From IMG/VR virus record IMGVR_UViG_3300021093_000054, positions 9,219 to 73,218 of that record: 64,000 bases of DNA; one strand, written 5' to 3'. A program made the position numbers and the translations under genes. Every line of letters begins with the position of its first letter. Position 1 is the first letter of the stretch. This stretch comes from a virus. Shown one piece after another: positions 8,215 to 47,257 of this stretch. Below the pieces are notes generated by a model, which saw only the letters and a list, made by a program, of their open reading frames with translations, was not told where the DNA came from and did not search any database.

Positions 8215-9345
8215 TCAATGGGAATCACCAACATTATTTTTTTCTCCATATATCAAATAGTCAGGGTTTATAACCTTTGATACTTTTCTACGGTCACCAC
8301 TTTCGTGTTTTACTACAACACCTTCGTGTGGTACTTTGGTACCTTTTATATTGTTATTGAAAACAAAACTATCTTGTTTTTTTTTATTCCACCGACCCCA
8401 ATGTAAAAGTTCAACCTGTGGTAAATCTAAGACATCAAAGTGAGCAGCTTCTGCTGGATAACGTTCATATTTACCATCAACCTCAACGTCAAAACCTGCA
8501 AATTTTATATCAGTTAAACCATAGTCGTAGTTTTTTTGTATTCCTACGCCATATATTTCACCATACACTATAAAACCACTTTCAAGGTATTCGTAAGTAT
8601 CTTTAACGTGAGTCCATAGTTTTTTACGTATATCATATTTTTTTGCAACATCGTCCCAAACATCAGAAGAGAAAAACCCTTGTGAGTCAGAACCTTTTTC
8701 AACATTATGAGAACCATAAACATATTCAAAACCAGCCCATCTATCACCAAAGAAAGATGTAACTCGATCCCATAAAGATAATTTTTTCTTTCTAACTATA
8801 CCGTAACGAGCATTGGTCCCATGTAACTTACGAGTTATAACAACCAAATCTTCTTCAGTAAACATATCGGGTACGTTCTTTTGATTTGGAAACTTGTAAT
8901 ATATGTGGAAGTTTGGATTTTGATGATACTTCATTTTACGTTCACCTGAAACCAAAGTTATAACTTTTACTGGTGGTTCGTATTTAGTTATATCTAATAC
9001 ACCCATCATGTCTTGACCTTCAACAAACCCGTCTACTGACATTTTTGATTTGAAAACTTGACCTAATGACATTATTAAACATTCAGAGTAAACTCCACGA
9101 AGTTTTACAGTTCTAACTCTTCGACCATTACGGAGGTAATTAGTAACACCTAATTCATCAGATAATTTTTGTGGTATTACAGCATCAGTAGTTGCAACAA
9201 CAACAAGATCATCAACCTTATATTCTCCTTTTTTGGTTATGGCATTCCAACCACCAACAGTTACTAATTCTATATTGTCGGCACCTAGTATTTCAGATAC
9301 TGAACCTATTACTCCAACATATGCTACACTATTCTGATTTTCCAT
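8215..9345 (-). CDS. RNA ligase (DRB0094/Rnl2-like) with N-terminal OB-like domain
   Basis: Motif I KLHGTN, YGEIYG, FDV, EGVVVK, KVINPDY; N-terminal ADNIEL...VRTVKLRGVYSE. Confidence 0.88.
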   Translation of the reverse strand: MENQNSVAYVGVIGSVSEILGADNIELVTVGGWNAITKKGEYKVDDLVVVATTDAVIPQKLSDELGVTNYLRNGRRVRTVKLRGVYSECLIMSLGQVFKSKMSVDGFVEGQDMMGVLDITKYEPPVKVITLVSGERKMKYHQNPNFHIYYKFPNQKNVPDMFTEEDLVVITRKLHGTNARYGIVRKKKLSLWDRVTSFFGDRWAGFEYVYGSHNVEKGSDSQGFFSSDVWDDVAKKYDIRKKLWTHVKDTYEYLESGFIVYGEIYGVGIQKNYDYGLTDIKFAGFDVEVDGKYERYPAEAAHFDVLDLPQVELLHWGRWNKKKQDSFVFNNNIKGTKVPHEGVVVKHESGDRRKVSKVINPDYLIYGEKNNVGDSH

Positions 9346-14477: not shown

Positions 14478-15488
14478 ATGAAAATTATAATTTCTGAATC
14501 ACAATATAATAAATTATATTCTTATAATAATCCAGGTGTCAATTTAATTATTAATGAAGTTGCCGGTAAAAAACTTACACCATTAAGTGAAGGTTGGTTA
14601 AATACTCTGGCCGACATTGTTGGTATTTTTGACCCAACAGGACTTGTTGATATTGGAAATGCCGTTTCATACTGGCACCAAGGAAAAAATACATTTGCCT
14701 TATTAACGTTAGTTTCTGCAATACCTGGTATTGACTGGGCAACAAAACCTTTTATTTTGGGTAGTAAAATTGTTGCTGGTGCATCTGAAACAAAAATACT
14801 TGGTTGGTTAGTAAGAACACTTAACAAATGGATTGGTAAAGTTTTAGACAAAATAGATAAGATGTTACTTTCTAAAATACCAATTGTTAAAAACTTTGCA
14901 GATGCTATGAGATCATTTATAAATGGTCTTAAAAAAGATTCAGAAATGAAATTAAACGAATCCAAACTTTATAAGATATTAACTGAAGATGTTGATTTTG
15001 ATAAGGCTTATCGTGAATTTTTCCCAAAAATTTATAAATCAGTATGTTTAAAATATGCAAAAGGTGATGGTGAAAAAGCTCAAGACTTTTGTCAAGATGG
15101 GTTTATAAAGGCTTACAATAAATTAAGTCAGTTTAGAGGTGATAATTTAGGTGGTTGGATTGCGATGATTGTAAGAAACAATATTCTTGATGAATTAAGA
15201 AAAGAAAAAGGTTCAAAAATTCAAGATTTTGATTTTGGTAGATATGATGCAAAACAAGAAGAATATGATGATTCATTTATGGGTAGATATAGTGAACAAG
15301 ATATTCAAGATGCAATAAATACATTATCACCACAATTTCAAAAGGTTTTCAGAATGTATTATTTTGATGGAATGAAACACCACGAAATTGCAAAAAAATT
15401 AGGTATTTCCGATAGTACATCAAAAACAAACTTACTTAGAGGAAAAGTAAAAGTTAAAGATTTCTTAGAAAATTTAAAGGAGGCATAA
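14478..15488 (+). CDS. fusion: leader + pre-toxin-TG-like domain + ECF sigma-70 factor
   Basis: C-half AQDFCQDGFIKAY...WIAMIVRNNILDELRK (region 2) and LSPQFQKVF...HHEIAKKLGISDSTSK (region 4); N-half DIVGIFDPTGLVD...SAIPG. Confidence 0.8.
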   Translation: MKIIISESQYNKLYSYNNPGVNLIINEVAGKKLTPLSEGWLNTLADIVGIFDPTGLVDIGNAVSYWHQGKNTFALLTLVSAIPGIDWATKPFILGSKIVAGASETKILGWLVRTLNKWIGKVLDKIDKMLLSKIPIVKNFADAMRSFINGLKKDSEMKLNESKLYKILTEDVDFDKAYREFFPKIYKSVCLKYAKGDGEKAQDFCQDGFIKAYNKLSQFRGDNLGGWIAMIVRNNILDELRKEKGSKIQDFDFGRYDAKQEEYDDSFMGRYSEQDIQDAINTLSPQFQKVFRMYYFDGMKHHEIAKKLGISDSTSKTNLLRGKVKVKDFLENLKEA

Positions 15489-37110: not shown

Positions 37111-38013
37111 CTAATTTACCAAACTTTTTTGATAAATATTTTGGAATATGTAAGAAATTACATCAACGGTCCATCCATTACCAATCATTTTTTTTCTTTG
37201 GTTTAAAGTTGCAATTGATGTGTAGTTATCTGGTAGTGTTTGTAATCTTTCGTATTCCAGAATATTAAGTTCCCTTAAATTTCCATCAACAACAACACCA
37301 TAGTTACAGGCCGTGTTTAGTGTATTTGTTTTACCGTGACTTACTCTACCTCTTCTTGTTTTACTCTTCGGAACTTCAAGGTTTACACAATCACCATTAT
37401 TAGCATACAAATATCCTTGTTTTGTTCCATTCCTTATTTTAAAACCTTCGTCGTTTATATCTAACACAACAAGGTGGTCGTTTATTATTTTTTCTGAACC
37501 ATCTGGTTTTAAAATATCTAAAATGTGAATGTTCTTATCTTCCATATTCTTATCAATTGGAATGTTAGTCCAATAAAGTCTTTGTCTTTTTTGAGCCGAA
37601 AAAAATTTACTGTCAATCATTATTGGTTCAACACCAATTGCGTCTGTTATAATTTTTTCCCATTCTTTTTTCATTACAACATTTTCTAAAAGAAAATATG
37701 TTGGTTTTACTTCATTTAATATTCTAACATATTCCCAAAATAAACCACTCTTTCCGTCAAATCCTGTATTGTCACCTGACCTACTAAATGATTGACATGG
37801 TGATCCACCTATAAGTAAATCAATTTTTGGTAATGTTGAGGTATCCAAACCTACAACACTACCTAATTGGATTGTATTTGGGAAATGGTGTTGTGTAAGG
37901 GAAATTGCGTGTTTATCAATTTCTGAAGCAAAATAATTATCAACTTCAATACCAGCTCTTTGTAGTGCTAGTTGTCCGCAGGAAATACCATCAAATAGAC
38001 TCAATATATTCAT
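37111..38013 (-). CDS. DNA (cytosine-5) methyltransferase
   Basis: LFDGISCG, GGSPCQ, LENV, QKRQRLYW, GNGW. Confidence 0.93.
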   Translation of the reverse strand: MNILSLFDGISCGQLALQRAGIEVDNYFASEIDKHAISLTQHHFPNTIQLGSVVGLDTSTLPKIDLLIGGSPCQSFSRSGDNTGFDGKSGLFWEYVRILNEVKPTYFLLENVVMKKEWEKIITDAIGVEPIMIDSKFFSAQKRQRLYWTNIPIDKNMEDKNIHILDILKPDGSEKIINDHLVVLDINDEGFKIRNGTKQGYLYANNGDCVNLEVPKSKTRRGRVSHGKTNTLNTACNYGVVVDGNLRELNILEYERLQTLPDNYTSIATLNQRKKMIGNGWTVDVISYIFQNIYQKSLVN

Positions 38014-38809
38014 ATTTCATATTTTTGAATATATGTTCTATAATACCTACGGTCCAACCATTTCCTAACATTTTATATCTTTGAGTATTGGAAACAACTG
38101 AAGAATAATTATCTGGAACATTTTGTAATCTTTCGTATTCAACTGGTGTTAGCATTCTAATATTACCATTATCCATAACACCACTCATTTGTTGATTACC
38201 AAATCCTTTATAATCTCTAGCAAGTAATGTTGCCGATTTATCACCACCAGGTTTATGTGTCTTTTTTTGGTTTGACACAATTATATGTTGACCACTTAAA
38301 AGTATATCAGACATTTTTACATTTTTATCTTCTGGTTGTTTTATATTTGAAATGTTGGTCCAGTAGAGTCGTTTTCTATTTTGTGCAGAAACAAGATTAC
38401 TATTTATTAAAATTGGTTCAACACCCATATGTTGTGTAATAACATCTTCATATTCTTTTTTCATCACAACATTTTCAAGTAAAAAGTATTTTGGTTTACA
38501 TTCTTCCATTAACCTAACAAATTCAAAGAACAATTTACTTCGTTCGTCTTCGAAATTTAATTGTTTACCAGCAAATGAAAATCCCTGACACGGACTACCA
38601 CCAATAAGTAAATCAATTGGTGGTAGGTCAGTTCCTTTAACTTGTGTAACATCACCAATTTGTATTGTTTCTGGATAGTTATGTTGTGTTACTTGTATTG
38701 CAAACTTATCTATTTCTGATGCAAAGTACTTATCATATTTAATACCAGCTTTGTTTAGTGCAATTTGTCCACAGGACATTCCATCAAATGAAGAAAGTAC
38801 ATTCATCAT
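37991..38809 (-). CDS. DNA (cytosine-5) methyltransferase
   Basis: FDGMSCG, GGSPCQ, LENV, QNRKRLYW, GNGW. Confidence 0.93.
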   Translation of the reverse strand: MMNVLSSFDGMSCGQIALNKAGIKYDKYFASEIDKFAIQVTQHNYPETIQIGDVTQVKGTDLPPIDLLIGGSPCQGFSFAGKQLNFEDERSKLFFEFVRLMEECKPKYFLLENVVMKKEYEDVITQHMGVEPILINSNLVSAQNRKRLYWTNISNIKQPEDKNVKMSDILLSGQHIIVSNQKKTHKPGGDKSATLLARDYKGFGNQQMSGVMDNGNIRMLTPVEYERLQNVPDNYSSVVSNTQRYKMLGNGWTVGIIEHIFKNMKYEYIESI

Positions 38810-39606
38810 AGATAGTCAAATAGTTCAGATGATTCATTACGAAGTCTACGAAGAGCTTTTTCTTTGATTTGTCTAACTCTTTCTTTTGTTAAGTTAAAAT
38901 CTGACCCAATGTCTTCCAAAGTTCTTGGTGTACCAGTAAGGCCAAAATAGTCACCGATGATTGATTTTTCACGGTCGTCCAAAACATTAAGTAATGACAA
39001 CAACTTGTCTTTAAGAATGTCTTTTGTATTAAACCCAGCGTCTGGAGCTACAGCATCTGGATTTTCAATAAGATCAATAAGTGTATCACCTTCTTCGTTG
39101 ATATTCATATCAAGATTAATTATTGAAGGAAGTCGGGCAAACTTATCATCCAGTTTTTTACCGGATTGTTCAACTTCTTTTTTTGCTTTTTGTAAATCCT
39201 GGACAACATTAACTGGGAGTCTGATTGTTCTTGCATTGTCATTTAGGGATTGAATAATTGATTGTTTAACCCACCACACAGCATATGAAATAAATCTTAA
39301 GTCTTTATTCCAATCAAAATTTTTAATTGCTTTCATAAGACCAAGGTTTCCTTCGGCAATAAGATCCGATAAATCAAGACCTTGATTCTGATACTGTTTT
39401 GCAACAGTGATAACAAAACGAAGATTTCCTTCCAATAGTTCGTCTTCTATTTTTTTTCTTTCTCTTTCCGAAATCTCTTCAGATTTCATTTTCAAAGCAA
39501 GCTCCTTCTCACGATCTGGAGTCATAACTTTAATCTTTCTAATGTCTTTTAGGTAGTGATAAATTTCGTCCTGATTAATTGGGGCACCGATGTTCTTTTC
39601 CTTCAT
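38806..39606 (-). CDS. RpoD/RpoS-family sigma-70 factor lacking region 1.1
   Basis: NLRFVITVAKQY, DLIAEGNLGLMKA, FISYAVWW, TIRLP, TKERVRQIKEKALRRLR. Confidence 0.93.
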   Translation of the reverse strand: MKEKNIGAPINQDEIYHYLKDIRKIKVMTPDREKELALKMKSEEISERERKKIEDELLEGNLRFVITVAKQYQNQGLDLSDLIAEGNLGLMKAIKNFDWNKDLRFISYAVWWVKQSIIQSLNDNARTIRLPVNVVQDLQKAKKEVEQSGKKLDDKFARLPSIINLDMNINEEGDTLIDLIENPDAVAPDAGFNTKDILKDKLLSLLNVLDDREKSIIGDYFGLTGTPRTLEDIGSDFNLTKERVRQIKEKALRRLRNESSELFDYL

Positions 39607-40227: not shown

Positions 40228-40526
40228 ATTGTGATTACATTTTATTTGTTGATGGTTCACAATAAACAACCTCTAAACCGAACTAACTAAATAGTTGTGA
40301 TTACCTTCCATTTAAGTATGATTCACAATTTTATTAAATATGGATAGTATATTGTCCGAGTTGTGATTACCTTTCATTTAAGGATGATTCACAATGCGCA
40401 CTGCCGGTTTGTCCGAACGATTTTTGTTGTGATTACCTTTCATTTAAGGATGATTCACAATTTCAATCGTTGGGGATGAATTATACGGCAGTTGTGATTA
40501 CCTTTCATTTAAGGATGATTCACAAT
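40228..40526. CRISPR. CRISPR array, 5 repeats (36 bp) and 4 spacers (30, 30, 30, 29 bp)
   Basis: Consensus (+) GTTGTGATTACCTTTCATTTAAGGATGATTCACAAT at 40360, 40426, 40491 (identical), 40294 (2 mismatches), 40228 (7 mismatches); unique spacers; palindromic ends TTGTGA/TCACAA. Confidence 0.95.
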
Positions 40527-40633
40527 GTGAATTAGGAAACTTTACTATTGAAAGGTTCTTATCATCAACAGAAGTTGTAACCAACTTCCTCCGAATAATT
40601 AAATTGGATGTCACACCACCCAGTTTTTGTTTC
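40527..40633 (-). ncRNA. candidate tracrRNA / omegaRNA-derived scaffold (or array leader)
   Basis: Inverted partial repeat copy at 40547-40569, perfect hairpin GAAGTTG/CAACTTC 40571-40588, second hairpin about 40603-40625. Confidence 0.55.
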
Positions 40634-41812
40634 CTATTTTTTTAAACTGTCAAAGAACTTTTTTGTCCCTAAATCTCTAATGTTTAAGGCAGCATTTAAA
40701 TCTCTATTCAAAATTTCACCACAATTTTCACATTTCCAGATTCTATCTTTTAATTCTAAATTTTTATTAATTGTCCCACAACAATTACATTTTTTACTTG
40801 TTGGTTCAAATCTACCAATTTCAACTAAATATTTTCCACTATTTTTTGTTTTATAACCAATCATAGTTTTAAATTTACCAAAACCAACATCAATTATACT
40901 TCTATTCAATCCAGATTTTTGTTTTACATTTTTACCAGGATTTTCTTTTGTACCTTTACTTGATTTTGTCATCCCTTTAACATTTAAATCTTCCATACAA
41001 ATCAAATCATAATTATCTACTAATTTTTTTGATTCGTTATGTAAAAAATTTTCTCTTGTATTAGCTACATTTTCATGTATTTTTGAAATGTTTTTTTTTA
41101 TTTTTTTATAGTTGTTTGACCCTTTTTTTGCTCTTGCTAATTTTCTTTGTAAGACAGTTAGGTGTTCTTGATTTTTAGTTAAATGTTTTGGATTTTCTAT
41201 TACTTCGTTATCTGATGTGACAACAAATGCTTTTACCCCCAAATCTATACCAACACTTTTTTTAACTTCAACTTTTTTAAAATTATTTGTGTACTCAACC
41301 ATAATTGAGACATAATATTTATTGTGTTTTTTTGAAATTGTTACGGTTTTGATTTTACCTTCAATAGGTCTATGATATTTAATTTTAATTAATTTTTCAA
41401 CCTTTGGTATTTTCAAATAGCCGTCATATGTAATATATAAATTTTTAGAATTTTGCTTTGTACTTGGTCTTGTTGTAAAACTTTGAGTGGTGTCGGATTC
41501 TTTTTTGAATTTTGGGTAACCCCCTTTATTTTTAAAAAAATTTTTATATGCCTTTGATAAGGCCTTCATTTCATTACAATATATGTTTACATCATATTCG
41601 TTTAGAAATGGTGCTTTTACTCTATAATTTTTTATATGATAATTTAATCCAAAATGTGATAAATTTGATTTACCACCCAACTGATAAATTTGTTTTTCAC
41701 AATCTAAAGAAACATTATAAACATATCTTCCGGCTTTGAAAGCCCCTTCAAAATATTCTATTTGTTTCTCTGTTGGGTAAATCCTATATTTATATGCTTT
41801 ATTTTGTTTCAC
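40634..41812 (-). CDS. tnpB: TnpB-family RNA-guided endonuclease (IS200/IS605 OrfB-like), CRISPR-adjacent
   Basis: N-terminal KAYKYRIYPT, RuvC-I GIDLG, RuvC-II CMEDL, Zn finger CNCC...CENC, RuvC-III RDLNAALNI; GTG start. Confidence 0.93.
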   Translation of the reverse strand: MKQNKAYKYRIYPTEKQIEYFEGAFKAGRYVYNVSLDCEKQIYQLGGKSNLSHFGLNYHIKNYRVKAPFLNEYDVNIYCNEMKALSKAYKNFFKNKGGYPKFKKESDTTQSFTTRPSTKQNSKNLYITYDGYLKIPKVEKLIKIKYHRPIEGKIKTVTISKKHNKYYVSIMVEYTNNFKKVEVKKSVGIDLGVKAFVVTSDNEVIENPKHLTKNQEHLTVLQRKLARAKKGSNNYKKIKKNISKIHENVANTRENFLHNESKKLVDNYDLICMEDLNVKGMTKSSKGTKENPGKNVKQKSGLNRSIIDVGFGKFKTMIGYKTKNSGKYLVEIGRFEPTSKKCNCCGTINKNLELKDRIWKCENCGEILNRDLNAALNIRDLGTKKFFDSLKK

Positions 41813-41816
41813 AATA

Positions 41817-41848
41817 CAAATATAGGATTTATTTTTTAATTGGTCAAA
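41817..41848 (-). promoter_or_regulatory. Bacteroidota sigma-A promoter for tnpB
   Basis: TTTG (41848-41845)-N20-TATATTTG (41824-41817), 4 nt before GTG. Confidence 0.75.
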
Positions 41849-44214
41849 AGTTTTGAGATATTATTTTGTTTTGTAATTTTTATCACACAATCTGCCCATT
41901 GTGAGACCATAGGATTGTGAGTTATTACAAACACTTTATCAAAGTATTCCTTAATCTTTACAAAAAATTCAGACACCATCTCCAAGTTGTCATTACTTAT
42001 TTTACCAAATACTTCGTCGAATACAATCAGATTGGGTTTTGGTAGAGAACATACTTTACTCAAAACTGATCTTAAGGCGAGTGATGCAATTGTTTTTTCA
42101 TATCCGGACCCACTAACCATTAACTTTTCAACACCAGTATTATTATCTACCTGGATAAACTCAACCTCGGATTTATCATTAATTCTGATTTCTAATTTGA
42201 AGTAACAAGAATCTTCCATCAACCTTTGTAATTCAGAGTTAATAAGTGGCATCATAGTTTTCATAATAATTTTACTAACACCATTCTTACCATAACTTTC
42301 AAGATACATTTTATAAATCTTATCCTTACTTTCTTCTTCTTTAATTTTTACAATTAAATTTTTGTTATTGGTAATCTTTTCCTTATTTGATTTAATTGTA
42401 TATTCATTTGTGTTAATCTGGTTATTCTTTTCTTTTAAAAGTTTATCATAACTTTCAAGTTTCAAGTCAGCTTTAATTAACATAGAATCAATCTGGTCGT
42501 TTGTTTTAATCTTGTCCTGGACCTCACCCCACCTTTTTAATTTATCTTCAAACCCAGAAATTTTCAAGTCACAACTTTCAACACTCAAATCATATTTTTC
42601 TTTGATAAGTTTGTTTTTCTCATACTCATCAAATTGTCTTTTTGTCTCAACAAATTCTTTTTCTTTGTTGGTTAAATCCGTCATTAACTTCTCAATAACC
42701 TTTTTTTGTTGTGTAAATCCATCAAGTTCAGATATTTTTTGTTGTGTAATTGCTGCGTTCATAAGTTCAATTCCACAGTGTTCACATTTAATACCACCCT
42801 TTACTTCTGACTTTAATTTTTCAATACCAGAAATCTTTGTTTCAAGTTCTATTTTTGAATGGAACTTAGTTTTATACTCATCTTTTACTTTGTCGTGTTT
42901 ATCTTCTTCATAAAATTGTTCTGGTTCAACAACCTTTAGTGTTGAAAGTAGGTCAACATAAGATTGTCTTTCTTTTTTCAAAGTTTCTATTTGTGATTTT
43001 GTTGTTTCTGGATTAAGTAAGGCAATTTCTTTATCGATGTCTGAATGTTTCTTTTTTAACATCGAATCTCTATAATCTTTTCCTTTTGCTATACCATCCT
43101 CAATTTCTTTTACTTCACTTTTAAGAATTTCAATTTGTCCTTCAAGTTCTGTGATTTTACTTTCAAAAGATTCAATATCTTGTTTTAATTCTTCTGAATT
43201 ATAGATATTTGATAATTTTGACTTACTAAATGATGAATAAATTTCTTTTGCAACTTCTTCCTTTTTCTTTAAAAATTCAAGACCCATAAATCTTGAAAGA
43301 ACTTGTCCTCTGGCTGTTGGTTTTGCTTCTAATAATTCTTCTAGGTTTGTTGCCGTTGTAAGAATTGTCATTAAGAAATCTTCCTTGGTCCCAATTGAAC
43401 TTTTAATGAAGGCTTCAGTTTCTCTTCTTTGTTCTCCGGTAAAGTTCTGTAAAGAACCATCGTGTAGTTTTTTAAAGAAATCAAGTTCTGTTTTAACATT
43501 CCATTCACCTTTCTTTGATTTTTTTCTTTCAATTTTTCTTAAAATTATATAATCTTCACCATCAATTGTGATTTCACCTTTAACAACAACCTCATCTTTA
43601 TCAGAAAATCTATTAAAAACTTCTTCAGCTTTTGATGTCTTTGTTGTTTCATTGAAGAACAAGAACATTAGTAAATCCACCGTAAGAACCGTCTTGCCAC
43701 CAAAGTTTGGTGGGTCCGATTCAACAACAACAATTCCATTCAACTTGTCAAAATCAAGTCGTTGGTTTTCGCCATATGATAAGAAGTTGGAGAACTCAAT
43801 GTTTCTTATGTACCACTTTTTAAACTGTGTTGTTTCAGAATCATCTTCTTTCATTTTATTCTCAACCATTTTATTCAAATCAAGAATTTCTGTAAGATGT
43901 TCTCCATACCCTTTGGATTCCAAAAATTTCTTTAACAAATCAAGTTGATAGTTAACGTCAGTTATGTTCATTGATACATCAACTGTTTGCATAGTTTCTG
44001 TGTCAACATTTTTTACTTTTGTAACAACATTAACATTTGTAGTGTTATACTTTTTTTGAAAGTAGTGTTTAACACTCTTCATTTTGTCTTGTGTGAAATT
44101 TTCTTGTAGGTCTTCCCACACCACCTGGATAGATGGGTTTTCAAACTTTGAAAAATCCAAATCTTTTATCATAATATTGTAATTGTATAATTTTGGTGGA
44201 TTAAATAAATCCAT
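41836..44214 (-). CDS. SbcC/Rad50 (gp46-like) ATPase
   Basis: FSNFLSYG, NFGGKT Walker A variant, coiled coil with CEHC hook, SGYEK, FDEVFG, ITH. Confidence 0.88.
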   Translation of the reverse strand: MDLFNPPKLYNYNIMIKDLDFSKFENPSIQVVWEDLQENFTQDKMKSVKHYFQKKYNTTNVNVVTKVKNVDTETMQTVDVSMNITDVNYQLDLLKKFLESKGYGEHLTEILDLNKMVENKMKEDDSETTQFKKWYIRNIEFSNFLSYGENQRLDFDKLNGIVVVESDPPNFGGKTVLTVDLLMFLFFNETTKTSKAEEVFNRFSDKDEVVVKGEITIDGEDYIILRKIERKKSKKGEWNVKTELDFFKKLHDGSLQNFTGEQRRETEAFIKSSIGTKEDFLMTILTTATNLEELLEAKPTARGQVLSRFMGLEFLKKKEEVAKEIYSSFSKSKLSNIYNSEELKQDIESFESKITELEGQIEILKSEVKEIEDGIAKGKDYRDSMLKKKHSDIDKEIALLNPETTKSQIETLKKERQSYVDLLSTLKVVEPEQFYEEDKHDKVKDEYKTKFHSKIELETKISGIEKLKSEVKGGIKCEHCGIELMNAAITQQKISELDGFTQQKKVIEKLMTDLTNKEKEFVETKRQFDEYEKNKLIKEKYDLSVESCDLKISGFEDKLKRWGEVQDKIKTNDQIDSMLIKADLKLESYDKLLKEKNNQINTNEYTIKSNKEKITNNKNLIVKIKEEESKDKIYKMYLESYGKNGVSKIIMKTMMPLINSELQRLMEDSCYFKLEIRINDKSEVEFIQVDNNTGVEKLMVSGSGYEKTIASLALRSVLSKVCSLPKPNLIVFDEVFGKISNDNLEMVSEFFVKIKEYFDKVFVITHNPMVSQWADCVIKITKQNNISKLLTN

Positions 44215-44949: not shown

Positions 44950-45587
44950 AATGTATCATTTAAATTTGAACCTCTCAAGAATACTGCATTTAATTTATTT
45001 TGTCTAGTATTTTGTAGGTCCTGGTTTATTTTTGTTAATTCTTTTATTTTATCATTTTTTTCCGTGAGTTCCTTTCTCAATTTTTGAAGTGTTTCCTGGA
45101 GCATTTTTTCATTGCTGTCGTCTAACTTAATGTCTAAACTTTGTCTAAATTCATCTAATTCTTTATCCTTTTTAGATATTTCATCTTCCAACCTGGCGAT
45201 TTTTTCACCAAGTTCATTTTCATTACTTTTATCATAAACAGTAACTACTTTTTCTACAATTTTTTCAACTGGAACTTCTTTAATTATTTCTTTTTCAACA
45301 ATAACTTCCTTTATAACCTCAATAGGAACTTCAACCCGTTTTTCAATAATAACTTCCTTTATTAATTGTTTTTCATCAATAACATCAGTTTTTAAGTCAT
45401 TTTTACCCTCATTAAGTGTTTCTCCTAATAATCCGTATTTTTTTATATCAAAACCTTGTTTAAAACATTTATATATAAAACCATCAATGTCTTTAATTTT
45501 ATTTTCAGAACAAAATGCCGACACTGTCTGCATTATCTTTTCATTAAAGATTTTTGAGTAATTCGGTTCCATTTTCAATATCGTCAA
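44946..45587 (-). CDS. coiled-coil protein with EVPVEKIVE repeats
   Basis: ORF; start uncertain. Confidence 0.55.
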   Translation of the reverse strand: MTILKMEPNYSKIFNEKIMQTVSAFCSENKIKDIDGFIYKCFKQGFDIKKYGLLGETLNEGKNDLKTDVIDEKQLIKEVIIEKRVEVPIEVIKEVIVEKEIIKEVPVEKIVEKVVTVYDKSNENELGEKIARLEDEISKKDKELDEFRQSLDIKLDDSNEKMLQETLQKLRKELTEKNDKIKELTKINQDLQNTRQNKLNAVFLRGSNLNDTL

Positions 45588-46323
45588 ATGAATTTATTGA
45601 GAATTTTAGAAATGGTCTTGGGTTTTCAAGATCGGTATATGTATATTCCTTGGTTTCGAAATCATAAATTCCGAACCCGTGGTTTCTAATACTTTCACCT
45701 ATGTTCTGTTGAATTGGTGATCCAATCATATATCCTTTACCTGTTTTGAATTTAAATTCCTGTCTTTTATGAATATCACCACATAATACAATATCAAGTC
45801 CGTTGAACTTTTCAACATCATATGCTTCTTCACCAAAGTCAAACCCTAAATCCGTTTTCATGCCTTGGATTGGTCCGTGAAATAAACCAACTTTAATACC
45901 TGTTGCAACATTCAAATCTGGTGGAATATTACCCTGGTATTGTGAATAAACACACCAACTAACATTTTCATCTTCATAAACACCTCTATCTCTATAATAG
46001 ACAATATTTTTGTTATTTAATGAATTAATTATTGGTGTTAAGGTATCCAGCCTATCTAAATTATTTATGAGTGCGTCGTGGTTCCCTGGGATGATAATTG
46101 TTTTTGTGATTTTGGAACATTCGGTCAATACCCAACTTACAATTTCTATTAATTCAGGACTAACAGTGTTTTTTGAATGAACGAGGTCTCCAGTAAATAC
46201 AATTCTATCTGGTTCAATCTCTCTCCATTGATTGAGTGCATCTTCCATAATTGACCTATAAAGGTCGTGGTCTTTAAATAATCTGATATGAAGATCAGAG
46301 AAATGACAAATGGTTTTGATCAT
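45544..46323 (-). CDS. SbcD/Mre11 (gp47-like) nuclease
   Basis: SDLH, TGDL, GNHD, FHG, GDIHK. Confidence 0.88.
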   Translation of the reverse strand: MIKTICHFSDLHIRLFKDHDLYRSIMEDALNQWREIEPDRIVFTGDLVHSKNTVSPELIEIVSWVLTECSKITKTIIIPGNHDALINNLDRLDTLTPIINSLNNKNIVYYRDRGVYEDENVSWCVYSQYQGNIPPDLNVATGIKVGLFHGPIQGMKTDLGFDFGEEAYDVEKFNGLDIVLCGDIHKRQEFKFKTGKGYMIGSPIQQNIGESIRNHGFGIYDFETKEYTYTDLENPRPFLKFSINSFDDIENGTELLKNL

Positions 46324-46414
46324 ATTGTTTGTTTTTTTAAAAAATATACAAAATATTTTAATTTTTCAATACTTAAAAGATATGTATATATATAAATGTA
46401 TTAATATTTTTATT

Positions 46415-47257
46415 ATGAAAAAAAATACTTGGACTAATGAAGAAATTGAATTTTTAAAGGTAAATTACCCAATAAAAGGTGTTGATTTTTGTGTTGATAA
46501 TTTAAATTACACAAAATCTAAAATATTTGCAATGACTCACAAACTAAAACTTAAAATGTTACCTAACATTAAGAAAAAATATACGGGTAAACCAAACAAT
46601 CTATGCAATGTAAATCCTTCAAAATTTGAAAATATTGTTGATAAAGATGTTTCTTATTTCCTTGGTTTGTTATGGGCTGATGGTCATATAATACATTACA
46701 AAAGAAATTACCATATTGTTTTAACTATGTTAGAAGATGATATTATGAATATTAAATGGATTTTAGATAAAGTTGGTAAATGGAACTATAATAAAATTAA
46801 AAAAGGGTCAGAAAACTGGAAAAATCAGATTCGGATTACAACAAACAATAAGAGAATATACGATATATTATATAAATATGATTTTACTAAAAAATCAAAG
46901 TTTTCACCAGAAAAGTTGTTAAATTCTATACCTAATGAACTACATAGTTACTTTTATTTGGGACTCATAGATGGTGATGGTTGTTTTTACATCGGTAGAA
47001 CAAAAAAATCAACAGTAAGACAATTTTCAATTTCATCAACCTACGAACAAGATTGGTCTTATCTTGAAAAATTGTTTAATTCAATGGATATCAAATTTTC
47101 TATTAATAGGTATAATAGGAAATCTGGTAGTTCTTATTCTTTTATTAGAGTTTCAAATAAAAAAGACATTACAAAAATTGGTGAATATATCTATAAAGAT
47201 ATTGATAGATTTGGTTTAGATAGAAAGTTTTTTAAGTACAACCAAATAATTTCATAA
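46415..47257 (+). CDS. double-motif LAGLIDADG homing endonuclease, free-standing
   Basis: YFLGLLWADG and FYLGLIDGDG; probable start at MKKNTWTNEE (track start 46310). Confidence 0.85.
   Translation: MKKNTWTNEEIEFLKVNYPIKGVDFCVDNLNYTKSKIFAMTHKLKLKMLPNIKKKYTGKPNNLCNVNPSKFENIVDKDVSYFLGLLWADGHIIHYKRNYHIVLTMLEDDIMNIKWILDKVGKWNYNKIKKGSENWKNQIRITTNNKRIYDILYKYDFTKKSKFSPEKLLNSIPNELHSYFYLGLIDGDGCFYIGRTKKSTVRQFSISSTYEQDWSYLEKLFNSMDIKFSINRYNRKSGSSYSFIRVSNKKDITKIGEYIYKDIDRFGLDRKFFKYNQIIS

Follow-up and report, generated by a model that had tools for sequence, protein, structure and literature searches.

A compact locus in the 64,000-nt stretch of viral DNA analyzed here (the window; positions 9,219 to 73,218 of IMG/VR record IMGVR_UViG_3300021093_000054) very probably encodes a miniature, self-contained type V-like CRISPR (clustered regularly interspaced short palindromic repeats) interference module, of the TranC / V-U kind. 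Its carrier is a large lake-water phage whose host is probably a Bacteroidota bacterium. The module comprises a nuclease gene, a structured scaffold RNA and a short repeat array, arranged as follows in window coordinates:

40634..41812, minus strand: gene of a TnpB-type RNA-guided nuclease (predicted effector) of 392 amino acids (aa), recognized as an open reading frame (ORF) with a GTG start, by Pfam, by alignment and from an AlphaFold (AF2) model.
40622..40633, minus strand: A-rich linker between stop codon and scaffold, read from the sequence.
40527..40621, minus strand: structured scaffold of ~95 nt, resembling tracrRNA (trans-activating CRISPR RNA) or omegaRNA, which runs straight into the first repeat and is conserved in 12/12 aligned family loci.
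40228..40526, minus strand: CRISPR array of five 36-nt repeats and four spacers, with a period of 65-66.
40491-40526, 40426-40461, 40360-40395, 40294-40329 and 40228-40263, minus strand: the repeats, 36 nt each.
40462-40490, 40396-40425, 40330-40359 and 40264-40293, minus strand: the 29-30-nt spacers between them.

The predicted effector displays the hallmarks of TnpB nucleases. Pfam assigned HTH_OrfB_IS605, OrfB_IS605 (E 7.9e-28) and Cas12f1-like_TNB (E 2e-20) to the 392-aa protein, and alignment with 23 relatives revealed an invariant RuvC triad, i.e., D190 (GIDLG), E274 (MEDL) and D371 (RDLN), along with an invariant CxxC...CxxC zinc finger (C342, C345, C361, C364), which bears out the description of this ORF in an earlier note on the same DNA. 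The AF2 model derived from this alignment (mean predicted local distance difference test score, 83.5) matched best, over its full length, the fold of ISDra2 TnpB (8h1j; template-modeling (TM) scores 0.75/0.81, 30% identity) and second best that of ISFba1 TnpB (8iaz), with AsCas12f, Fanzor2 and LaTranC (TM 0.65/0.55) ranking lower. At the sequence level, the best match of the RuvC half among solved proteins was RdCas12n (9j09; 171 bits over residues 151-387), which also has in common with the window protein an insert, KGTxENPGKNVxQKSGLNR, that is missing from ISDra2 TnpB; the N-terminal half yielded 5.3 bits and no alignment to RdCas12n. The chain ends ~20 residues beyond RuvC-III. In size and fold, the protein is a bare TnpB, of the TnpB lineage that also yielded Cas12n, and the sizes of its family members range from about 379 to 415 aa (415 aa in locus L027; 379-383 aa in some relatives).

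Recounting of the array reproduced exactly what the earlier note had reported, that is, 107 nt from the stop codon to the first repeat (40527-40633) and five repeats with 0, 0, 0, 2 and 7 mismatches to the consensus when read from the tnpB side, the decayed repeat being farthest from the gene and the conserved end facing it. Among thousands of TnpB homologues, identity to the window protein shows a clear gap, with ~45 clusters at 52-95% and the remainder at 46% or below. DNA was fetched for 159 loci (79 viral, 80 metagenome), and all 11 loci with at least 53% protein identity carry a non-coding stretch of ~95-105 nt and a 36-nt-repeat array of period 65-66. Array-less closest homologues residing in ordinary insertion sequence (IS) ends, the contrary outcome that the note had envisaged, were not seen among them. 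Scanning of IMG/VR with the scaffold motif returned six loci. Three of these matches are due to chance, two stand on contigs fetched before, and the sixth (L271), on a 187-kb phage contig, is new, a twelfth relative found via the scaffold motif alone. Gene, scaffold and array are thus kept in 12 other loci, on viral and metagenome contigs, whose proteins are 53-61% identical to that of the window. In an exact-12-mer screen, which is not exhaustive given that it missed the family locus L109, array-like repeats were evident in 13/239 loci, namely 10 of the family and 3 of the 228 others, and only one of these three (L155) has its array downstream of tnpB, with an unrelated repeat. This metagenome locus (37% identical) contains, at 1827-2400, six copies of a ~36-nt repeat with spacers of ~30-36 nt, beginning ~180 nt past the tnpB stop codon, and is probably another independent TnpB-array association.

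A FastTree phylogeny of 105 rows grouped all 13 array-linked proteins into one clade of 58 rows (Shimodaira-Hasegawa-like support 100, stem 0.46), into which none of the 28 rows labeled as array-less fell; these 28 include L155 despite its own array, and one row of the tree (L048) is partial. Every clade locus with DNA context (13/13) carries scaffold and array, in differing genomic surroundings. The nearest array-less relatives (46% identity or below), mostly on viral contigs, have a C-terminal tail of 20-25 codons overlapped by an omegaRNA-like sequence that ends just past the stop codon, and the array-linked clade has lost both the tail and the overlapping omegaRNA. Among the matches listed from 185,579 species genomes, identity does not exceed 38%. 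The association between array and TnpB is old and diversified and defines a deep clade: a module kept across proteins only 53-61% identical is not recent. Consequently, the recent or nascent transition proposed in the earlier note is contradicted by the 12 additional loci, the depth of the clade, the dedicated scaffold and the missing tail. The claim that TnpB and array form one functional unit fares well, inasmuch as their linkage in 13 loci and the covariation between scaffold and repeat described below both argue for it.

The spacers further revealed that these arrays are live. Family arrays have 4-7 repeats, and 52 of the 53 spacers read in the 13 loci are distinct, confirming the expectation that relatives would keep the array with different spacers. 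In L111-L114, genes and scaffolds are near-identical and the spacer sets differ; L112 and L114 have one spacer in common near the far end of the array, and their scaffold-side spacers differ. This is the pattern expected from polarized acquisition at the scaffold end, and spacers turn over between near-identical loci. Mean G+C content is 0.34 in spacers versus 0.31 in the loci. In the L108 array, one spacer occurs twice (2508-2537 and 2789-2818), the second copy after a partial repeat, which points to an internal array duplication.

The stretch between stop codon and array folds into a predicted structure that extends into the first repeat and consists of the following elements:

40606..40621, minus strand: 5' hairpin GGGUG[GUGUGA]CAUCC, 5 pairs, 100% paired, with 2 compensatory pairs (RNAalifold).
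40611-40616, minus strand: loop of this hairpin, with complementarity to each repeat's 3' end; 5 pairs, 100% paired.
40559..40598, minus strand: helix between UUAUU (40594-40598) and GAUAA (40559-40563), 95% paired, with 2 compensatory pairs.
40571-40588, minus strand: variable hairpin enclosed by the long-range helix, present in each lineage with a different sequence (read by eye).
40549..40555, minus strand: CCUUUCA box facing UGAAAGG in the repeat, a candidate anti-repeat, 7 pairs, 85.5% of cells paired.

Covariation was assessed in an alignment of 12 mutually related family sequences, each starting at the stop codon and running through the first repeat. From the raw alignment, RNAalifold recovered only the 5' hairpin, and the three further helices were set by hand. 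Taking all helices together, 94.3% of cells are paired, as compared to 43-56% when the partners are slid by 1-3 columns, and none of 500 shuffles reached the observed covariation score. In the loop-repeat pairing, G-C is replaced by A-U in 3/12 sequences, precisely those in which the repeat ends in UUACAAC instead of UCACAAC. An alternative hairpin inside the repeat is less well supported (72.7% paired) than the CCUUUCA-UGAAAGG pairing. Covariation therefore supports a guide RNA that would be split into a tracr-like scaffold and a pairing, repeat-derived CRISPR RNA (crRNA). The scaffold motif occurs once in the 64 kb of the window and never in 100 shuffles. Searches of Rfam returned only a sub-threshold chance match (LPR69; its 20.3 bits fall short of the gathering score, 40), and an inverted-repeat search for an anti-repeat uncovered nothing beyond a 17-nt match of 76%.

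Gene order within the family provides an independent view of the scaffold. In L108 and L109, a promoter-like site is followed by the scaffold, the array and then the nuclease gene, and the foot of the 5' hairpin, which a TAnnTTTG box precedes by a few bases, marks where the scaffold starts. This order indicates that the scaffold is a separate RNA gene traveling with the array rather than the tail of the tnpB mRNA, and that the unit is not IS-like; to our knowledge, the order scaffold-array-gene is found in no IS element. The first repeat of L028, L109 and L110 is reduced to its 3' half and fused to the scaffold, which looks like a natural single-guide RNA, as judged from its sequence.

We also searched for the genes that would betray a transposon or an adaptation machinery. 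Matches to Cas1, Cas2 or Y1 transposase were found in none of the 77 window ORFs at E <= 1e-5, in agreement with the reported absence of tnpA, cas1 and cas2 from the 64 kb. Neither Cas1 nor Y1_Tnp turned up when the entire 73-kb record and three records of related phages, all of them fragments, were searched in six frames; as a positive control, the Cas1 search detected the protein in 7/14 known genomes. Each of the four phage records contains a single uninterrupted copy of the nuclease gene. In the window, a 792-aa ORF on the minus strand lies upstream, and the 23 nt that separate it from the GTG start leave no room for an IS left end. The traits by which IS200/IS605 (OMEGA) elements are recognized are lacking, as there is no TnpA, the gene is single-copy and the scaffold lies wholly after the stop codon. 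Of the notion that the protein is still an ordinary transposon TnpB, the minimal TnpB fold stands; the transposon does not, with one copy per record, no tnpA and two loci arranged as scaffold-array-gene.

With no Cas1 in the phage records, spacers would be taken up by host machinery acting in trans. Read on the plus strand, the repeat opens with ~23 nt that agree at 18/23 positions with a 47-nt repeat of period 77 present in several IMG/VR contigs, a figure to be read knowing that the search pattern for the 47-nt repeat fixed those 18 letters. In L011 (1900-6900 and 7244-8173), an array of this 47-nt repeat adjoins a Cas1 gene (Pfam E 3.2e-26), and we take the repeat to be of the Bacteroidota type II-C. 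The likeness could be due to chance or could hint at the spacer-loading machinery of the host.

Expression signals around the nuclease gene are as follows:

41819..41847, minus strand: promoter-like site TTGACC-17-TATATT, 10/12 consensus matches, with a second box, TAtaTTTG, ending 4 nt before the GTG.
41778..41831, minus strand: 18-nt inverted repeat, 94% complementary, whose loop contains the nuclease start codon.

The complete host-type promoter claimed in the earlier note holds in part. The site is present, and relatives L027 and L113 share its TTTG ... TAnnTTTG layout with the box ending 4 nt before the start codon, whereas its match to the consensus is not above chance, since the region contains 15 consensus-type sites versus 12.0 +/- 3.6 in shuffles. 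We take the TAnnTTTG arrangement to be a Bacteroidota-type -33/-7 promoter, which would give a nearly leaderless mRNA. One arm of the inverted repeat overlaps the second promoter box, and codons 6-11, which encode the conserved YKYRIY motif, contain the other; weaker A/T-rich complementarity occurs in L113, and the inverted repeat is possibly a regulatory hairpin. No separate scaffold promoter was seen in the window, so the scaffold is most simply taken to be co-transcribed with the gene and then processed. A G+C-rich, terminator-like hairpin with a T run directly follows the array in L027 (2460-2500), L106 (4600-4640) and L271 (minus strand), whereas the window has no clear terminator of that kind after its last repeat.

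On the basis of these sequence features, we propose that gene, scaffold and array would be transcribed one way from the promoter ahead of the gene and that the nuclease would bind the scaffold. The 3' ~20 nt of the repeat (UGAAAGG...UCACAAC) would pair with the CCUUUCA box and the 5' hairpin loop, rebuilding an omegaRNA-like fold, and the 29-30-nt spacer after the repeat would serve as guide. The first repeat, covalently joined to the scaffold, would act as a natural single guide, and the repeat-spacer units further along would base-pair to the scaffold in trans, in the way of a crRNA with a tracrRNA. The complex would cut matching DNA beside a short 5' motif via RuvC. New spacers would probably be added by host Cas1-Cas2 in trans, and the likely use of the module, during infection, would be defense against rival phages or other mobile elements.

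Systems of this kind have been described. Altae-Tran 2023 (PMC10691335) reports 40 array-linked TnpB branches, V-U6 to V-U45, most of them without other cas genes and 15 known from metagenomes only. The window family resembles them in its TnpB-like clade, downstream array, short arrays and small effectors, and differs in the two loci with the array upstream of the gene, an order that is rare for type V according to the same source. The name TranC (transposon-CRISPR intermediate) was given to such systems by Jin et al. (2025, Cell 188:6283, as summarised in PMC13565253), who showed a functional split of the omegaRNA into tracrRNA and crRNA; the likeness of the window family extends to a TnpB-size nuclease of TnpB lineage beside a short array, no cas1/cas2, and a predicted split into scaffold and crRNA. 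Closest by description is CauTranC9, from a Caudoviricetes genome, whose clade averages 414 aa, is devoid of the ISDra2 C-terminal domain and has five repeats of 38 bp, and whose array targets phages (bioRxiv 10.64898/2026.03.27.714800). Compared by description only, the two have in common the phage origin, size, absence of the C-terminal domain and five repeats, and differ in repeat length (38 bp versus 36 nt in the window family). Phage TnpBs beside arrays have also been reported from a landfill virome (PMC12607003). The novelty assumed in the earlier note is therefore not upheld, as array-linked TnpB and TranC systems, including a phage-borne one of ~414 aa, are already published.

Comparison with individual nucleases refines this placement. 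LaTranC (9jfo/9jfq), the one TranC with a solved structure, matches the C-terminal 150 residues only (E 5e-20) and its fold score is below that of ISDra2 TnpB; this partial match and poorer fold indicate that the window family does not belong to the LaTranC clade. Cas12n (V-U4) is alike in the RuvC half and the insert shared with RdCas12n. It is described as a ~540-aa protein with expanded REC/WED and a tracrRNA encoded in its tail (bioRxiv 10.64898/2026.03.27.714800), whereas the window protein has 392 aa, a scaffold wholly downstream of the stop codon and an N-terminal half without alignment. The TnpBs of ISDra2 and ISFba1 have the same domains and fold and likewise a guide 3' of a structured scaffold downstream of the gene; in contrast to them, the window locus has no tnpA, no IS ends, a single copy and a scaffold outside the coding sequence, and a multi-spacer array replaces the one guide at the transposon end. 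A literature search with four repeat and scaffold motifs returned only unrelated matches, via one 12-letter motif. Collectively, the window family fits the TranC / V-U kind in every feature tested, the numbered clades having been compared by description only, and it is possibly already catalogued among them.

Several observations weigh against an interference module as proposed. Protospacers, which would bear on the suggestion in the earlier note that competing elements or the host may be targeted, were found neither in the 73-kb record of the phage itself nor in the fetched loci, the best foreign matches being of 13-22 nt; in INPHARED, neither the array of the window nor that of L113 had one, and IMG/VR gave no match to the first 24 nt of window spacer 2 or the first 22 nt of spacer 1, the two prefixes tried. 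(The L271 array yielded only 26-nt matches to Enterococcus phages, E 0.4, which we take as chance.) All four phage records are fragments, and adaptation genes could sit elsewhere in the genomes. The phylogeny comes from FastTree only, and 45 of the 58 clade members are without DNA context. As for the RNA, the structure strings were drawn by the author from the same sequences as were scored, and the scaffold-repeat duplex energy in the window (z -0.87) is not better than with shuffled repeats, with energies clearly above shuffled repeats only in L108, L109 and L028; what carries the trans-pairing model is the covariation seen among 12 related sequences, and not the energy. Furthermore, three low-depth RNA-library contigs from one lake-water run, which are 95-97% identical and thus stem from a relative, cover window positions 40629-40959, 41070-41388 and 41745-41877, i.e., parts of the nuclease gene only. 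One stops 5 nt beyond the stop codon, just before the scaffold, and no RNA-library contig lies over scaffold or array. Libraries of this kind can hold DNA, and these contigs are evidence neither for nor against guide expression.

Other explanations were weighed against the same evidence. The nuclease might use only the scaffold, first repeat and first spacer, in the manner of an omegaRNA with one guide, with the remaining units serving a Cas effector of the host, as happens with phage mini-arrays that rely on host machinery. Reduction of the first repeat to a scaffold-fused 3' half in three loci, resemblance of the first ~23 nt of the repeat to the Cas1-adjacent 47-nt family and the lack of adaptation genes in the phage records would all suit such mixed use, which we nonetheless regard as quite improbable: full 36-nt repeats, including the scaffold-pairing half, are conserved and covary across the clade, the array has its conserved end at the scaffold, in keeping with transcription that reads through from the nuclease gene, and the exact 36-nt repeat has no match in IMG/VR or in the 185,579 species genomes (nor has a pattern retaining both repeat ends in IMG/VR). 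Function as a guide-RNA-directed regulator, or as a homing or maintenance device, instead of an interference nuclease, is very unlikely in view of the RuvC triad and zinc finger invariant in 23 sequences, the diverse spacers that turn over and the absence of spacer matches to the 73-kb record, even though domestication of TnpB relatives into repressors is known (TldR, Cas12m, Cas12c; cited in PMC13565253) and no targets were found. As for an ordinary IS200/IS605 TnpB that landed by chance beside an orphan phage array, scaffold and array accompany the gene in 13/13 clade loci in varied surroundings, the scaffold covaries with the repeat, and the lack of tnpA, the one copy per record and the 23-nt spacing without space for a left end are difficult to reconcile with it; spread through one recent clone is excluded by the 53-61% protein identity. 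Although the Pfam domains and fold are those of a plain TnpB, and PMC10691335 leaves open tnpB insertion near pre-existing arrays, we hold this coincidence to be barely conceivable.

The interference module of TranC / V-U kind remains our preferred explanation. A bolder version of it, unlikely as a whole, would see an undescribed lineage with the smallest CRISPR effectors known (379-415 aa), confined to ~300-kb freshwater Bacteroidota phages, that works in dual mode from a single transcript (a built-in single guide plus trans-paired crRNAs) and obtains its spacers via host Cas1-Cas2. Since one end of the repeat resembles the Cas1-linked, host-type 47-nt repeat, the array in this version may derive from a host system or have been fitted to one, instead of arising by omegaRNA duplication.

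The genomic setting is that of a large phage. CheckV assigns 25% completeness to the 73-kb record (IMG/VR virus; G+C ~29%), which translates to a genome of ~290 kb, and completeness of 24%, 64% and 8% in the three related viral records translates to genomes of ~290-370 kb. A Pfam scan of the 77 window ORFs revealed a phage gene set with an RNA ligase, two sigma factors and two C5 DNA methylases, along with DnaJ, thioredoxin, amidase, primase, an SbcD-like phosphoesterase and a SprB-repeat protein. Promoter type, the SprB-repeat protein and low G+C suggest a Bacteroidota host. The two C5 cytosine DNA methylase genes are adjacent and overlapping (37114-38809 and 38809-39606, both minus strand) and are followed by a sigma-70-family gene; the second sigma factor gene maps at 14478-15485 (plus strand). 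An ORF of 315 aa (46310-47254, plus strand), which contains a LAGLIDADG homing-endonuclease domain, runs opposite to the surrounding minus-strand replication and repair genes and adjoins the SbcD-like phosphoesterase gene (45547-46323). In a comparison of insertion sites, the SbcC-like neighbor had no match in the three related phage records, which are fragmentary, and megablast of the locus against INPHARED phages gave no match. Most of the locus is present in 21 lake-water DNA runs, probably from one campaign, the source of the record included; their contigs break inside the array, without alternative spacers.

The conceptual addition is small, given that such systems have already been published, among them a phage-borne one of similar size. 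The notable traits of the family are its very small effector, a distribution restricted to phages so far, two gene orders and the fusion of scaffold and first repeat; the latter two make natural variants available for comparison within one family. At 392 aa (379-383 aa in relatives), the nuclease marks the lower size limit of array-guided nucleases and is of interest for compact genome editors. With spacers turning over in phage records devoid of adaptation genes, one may ask which machinery loads them. The family illustrates cleanly, in nature, how a transposon TnpB turns into a CRISPR effector: the protein is still a bare TnpB, while the RNA side is already a tracr-like scaffold plus array.

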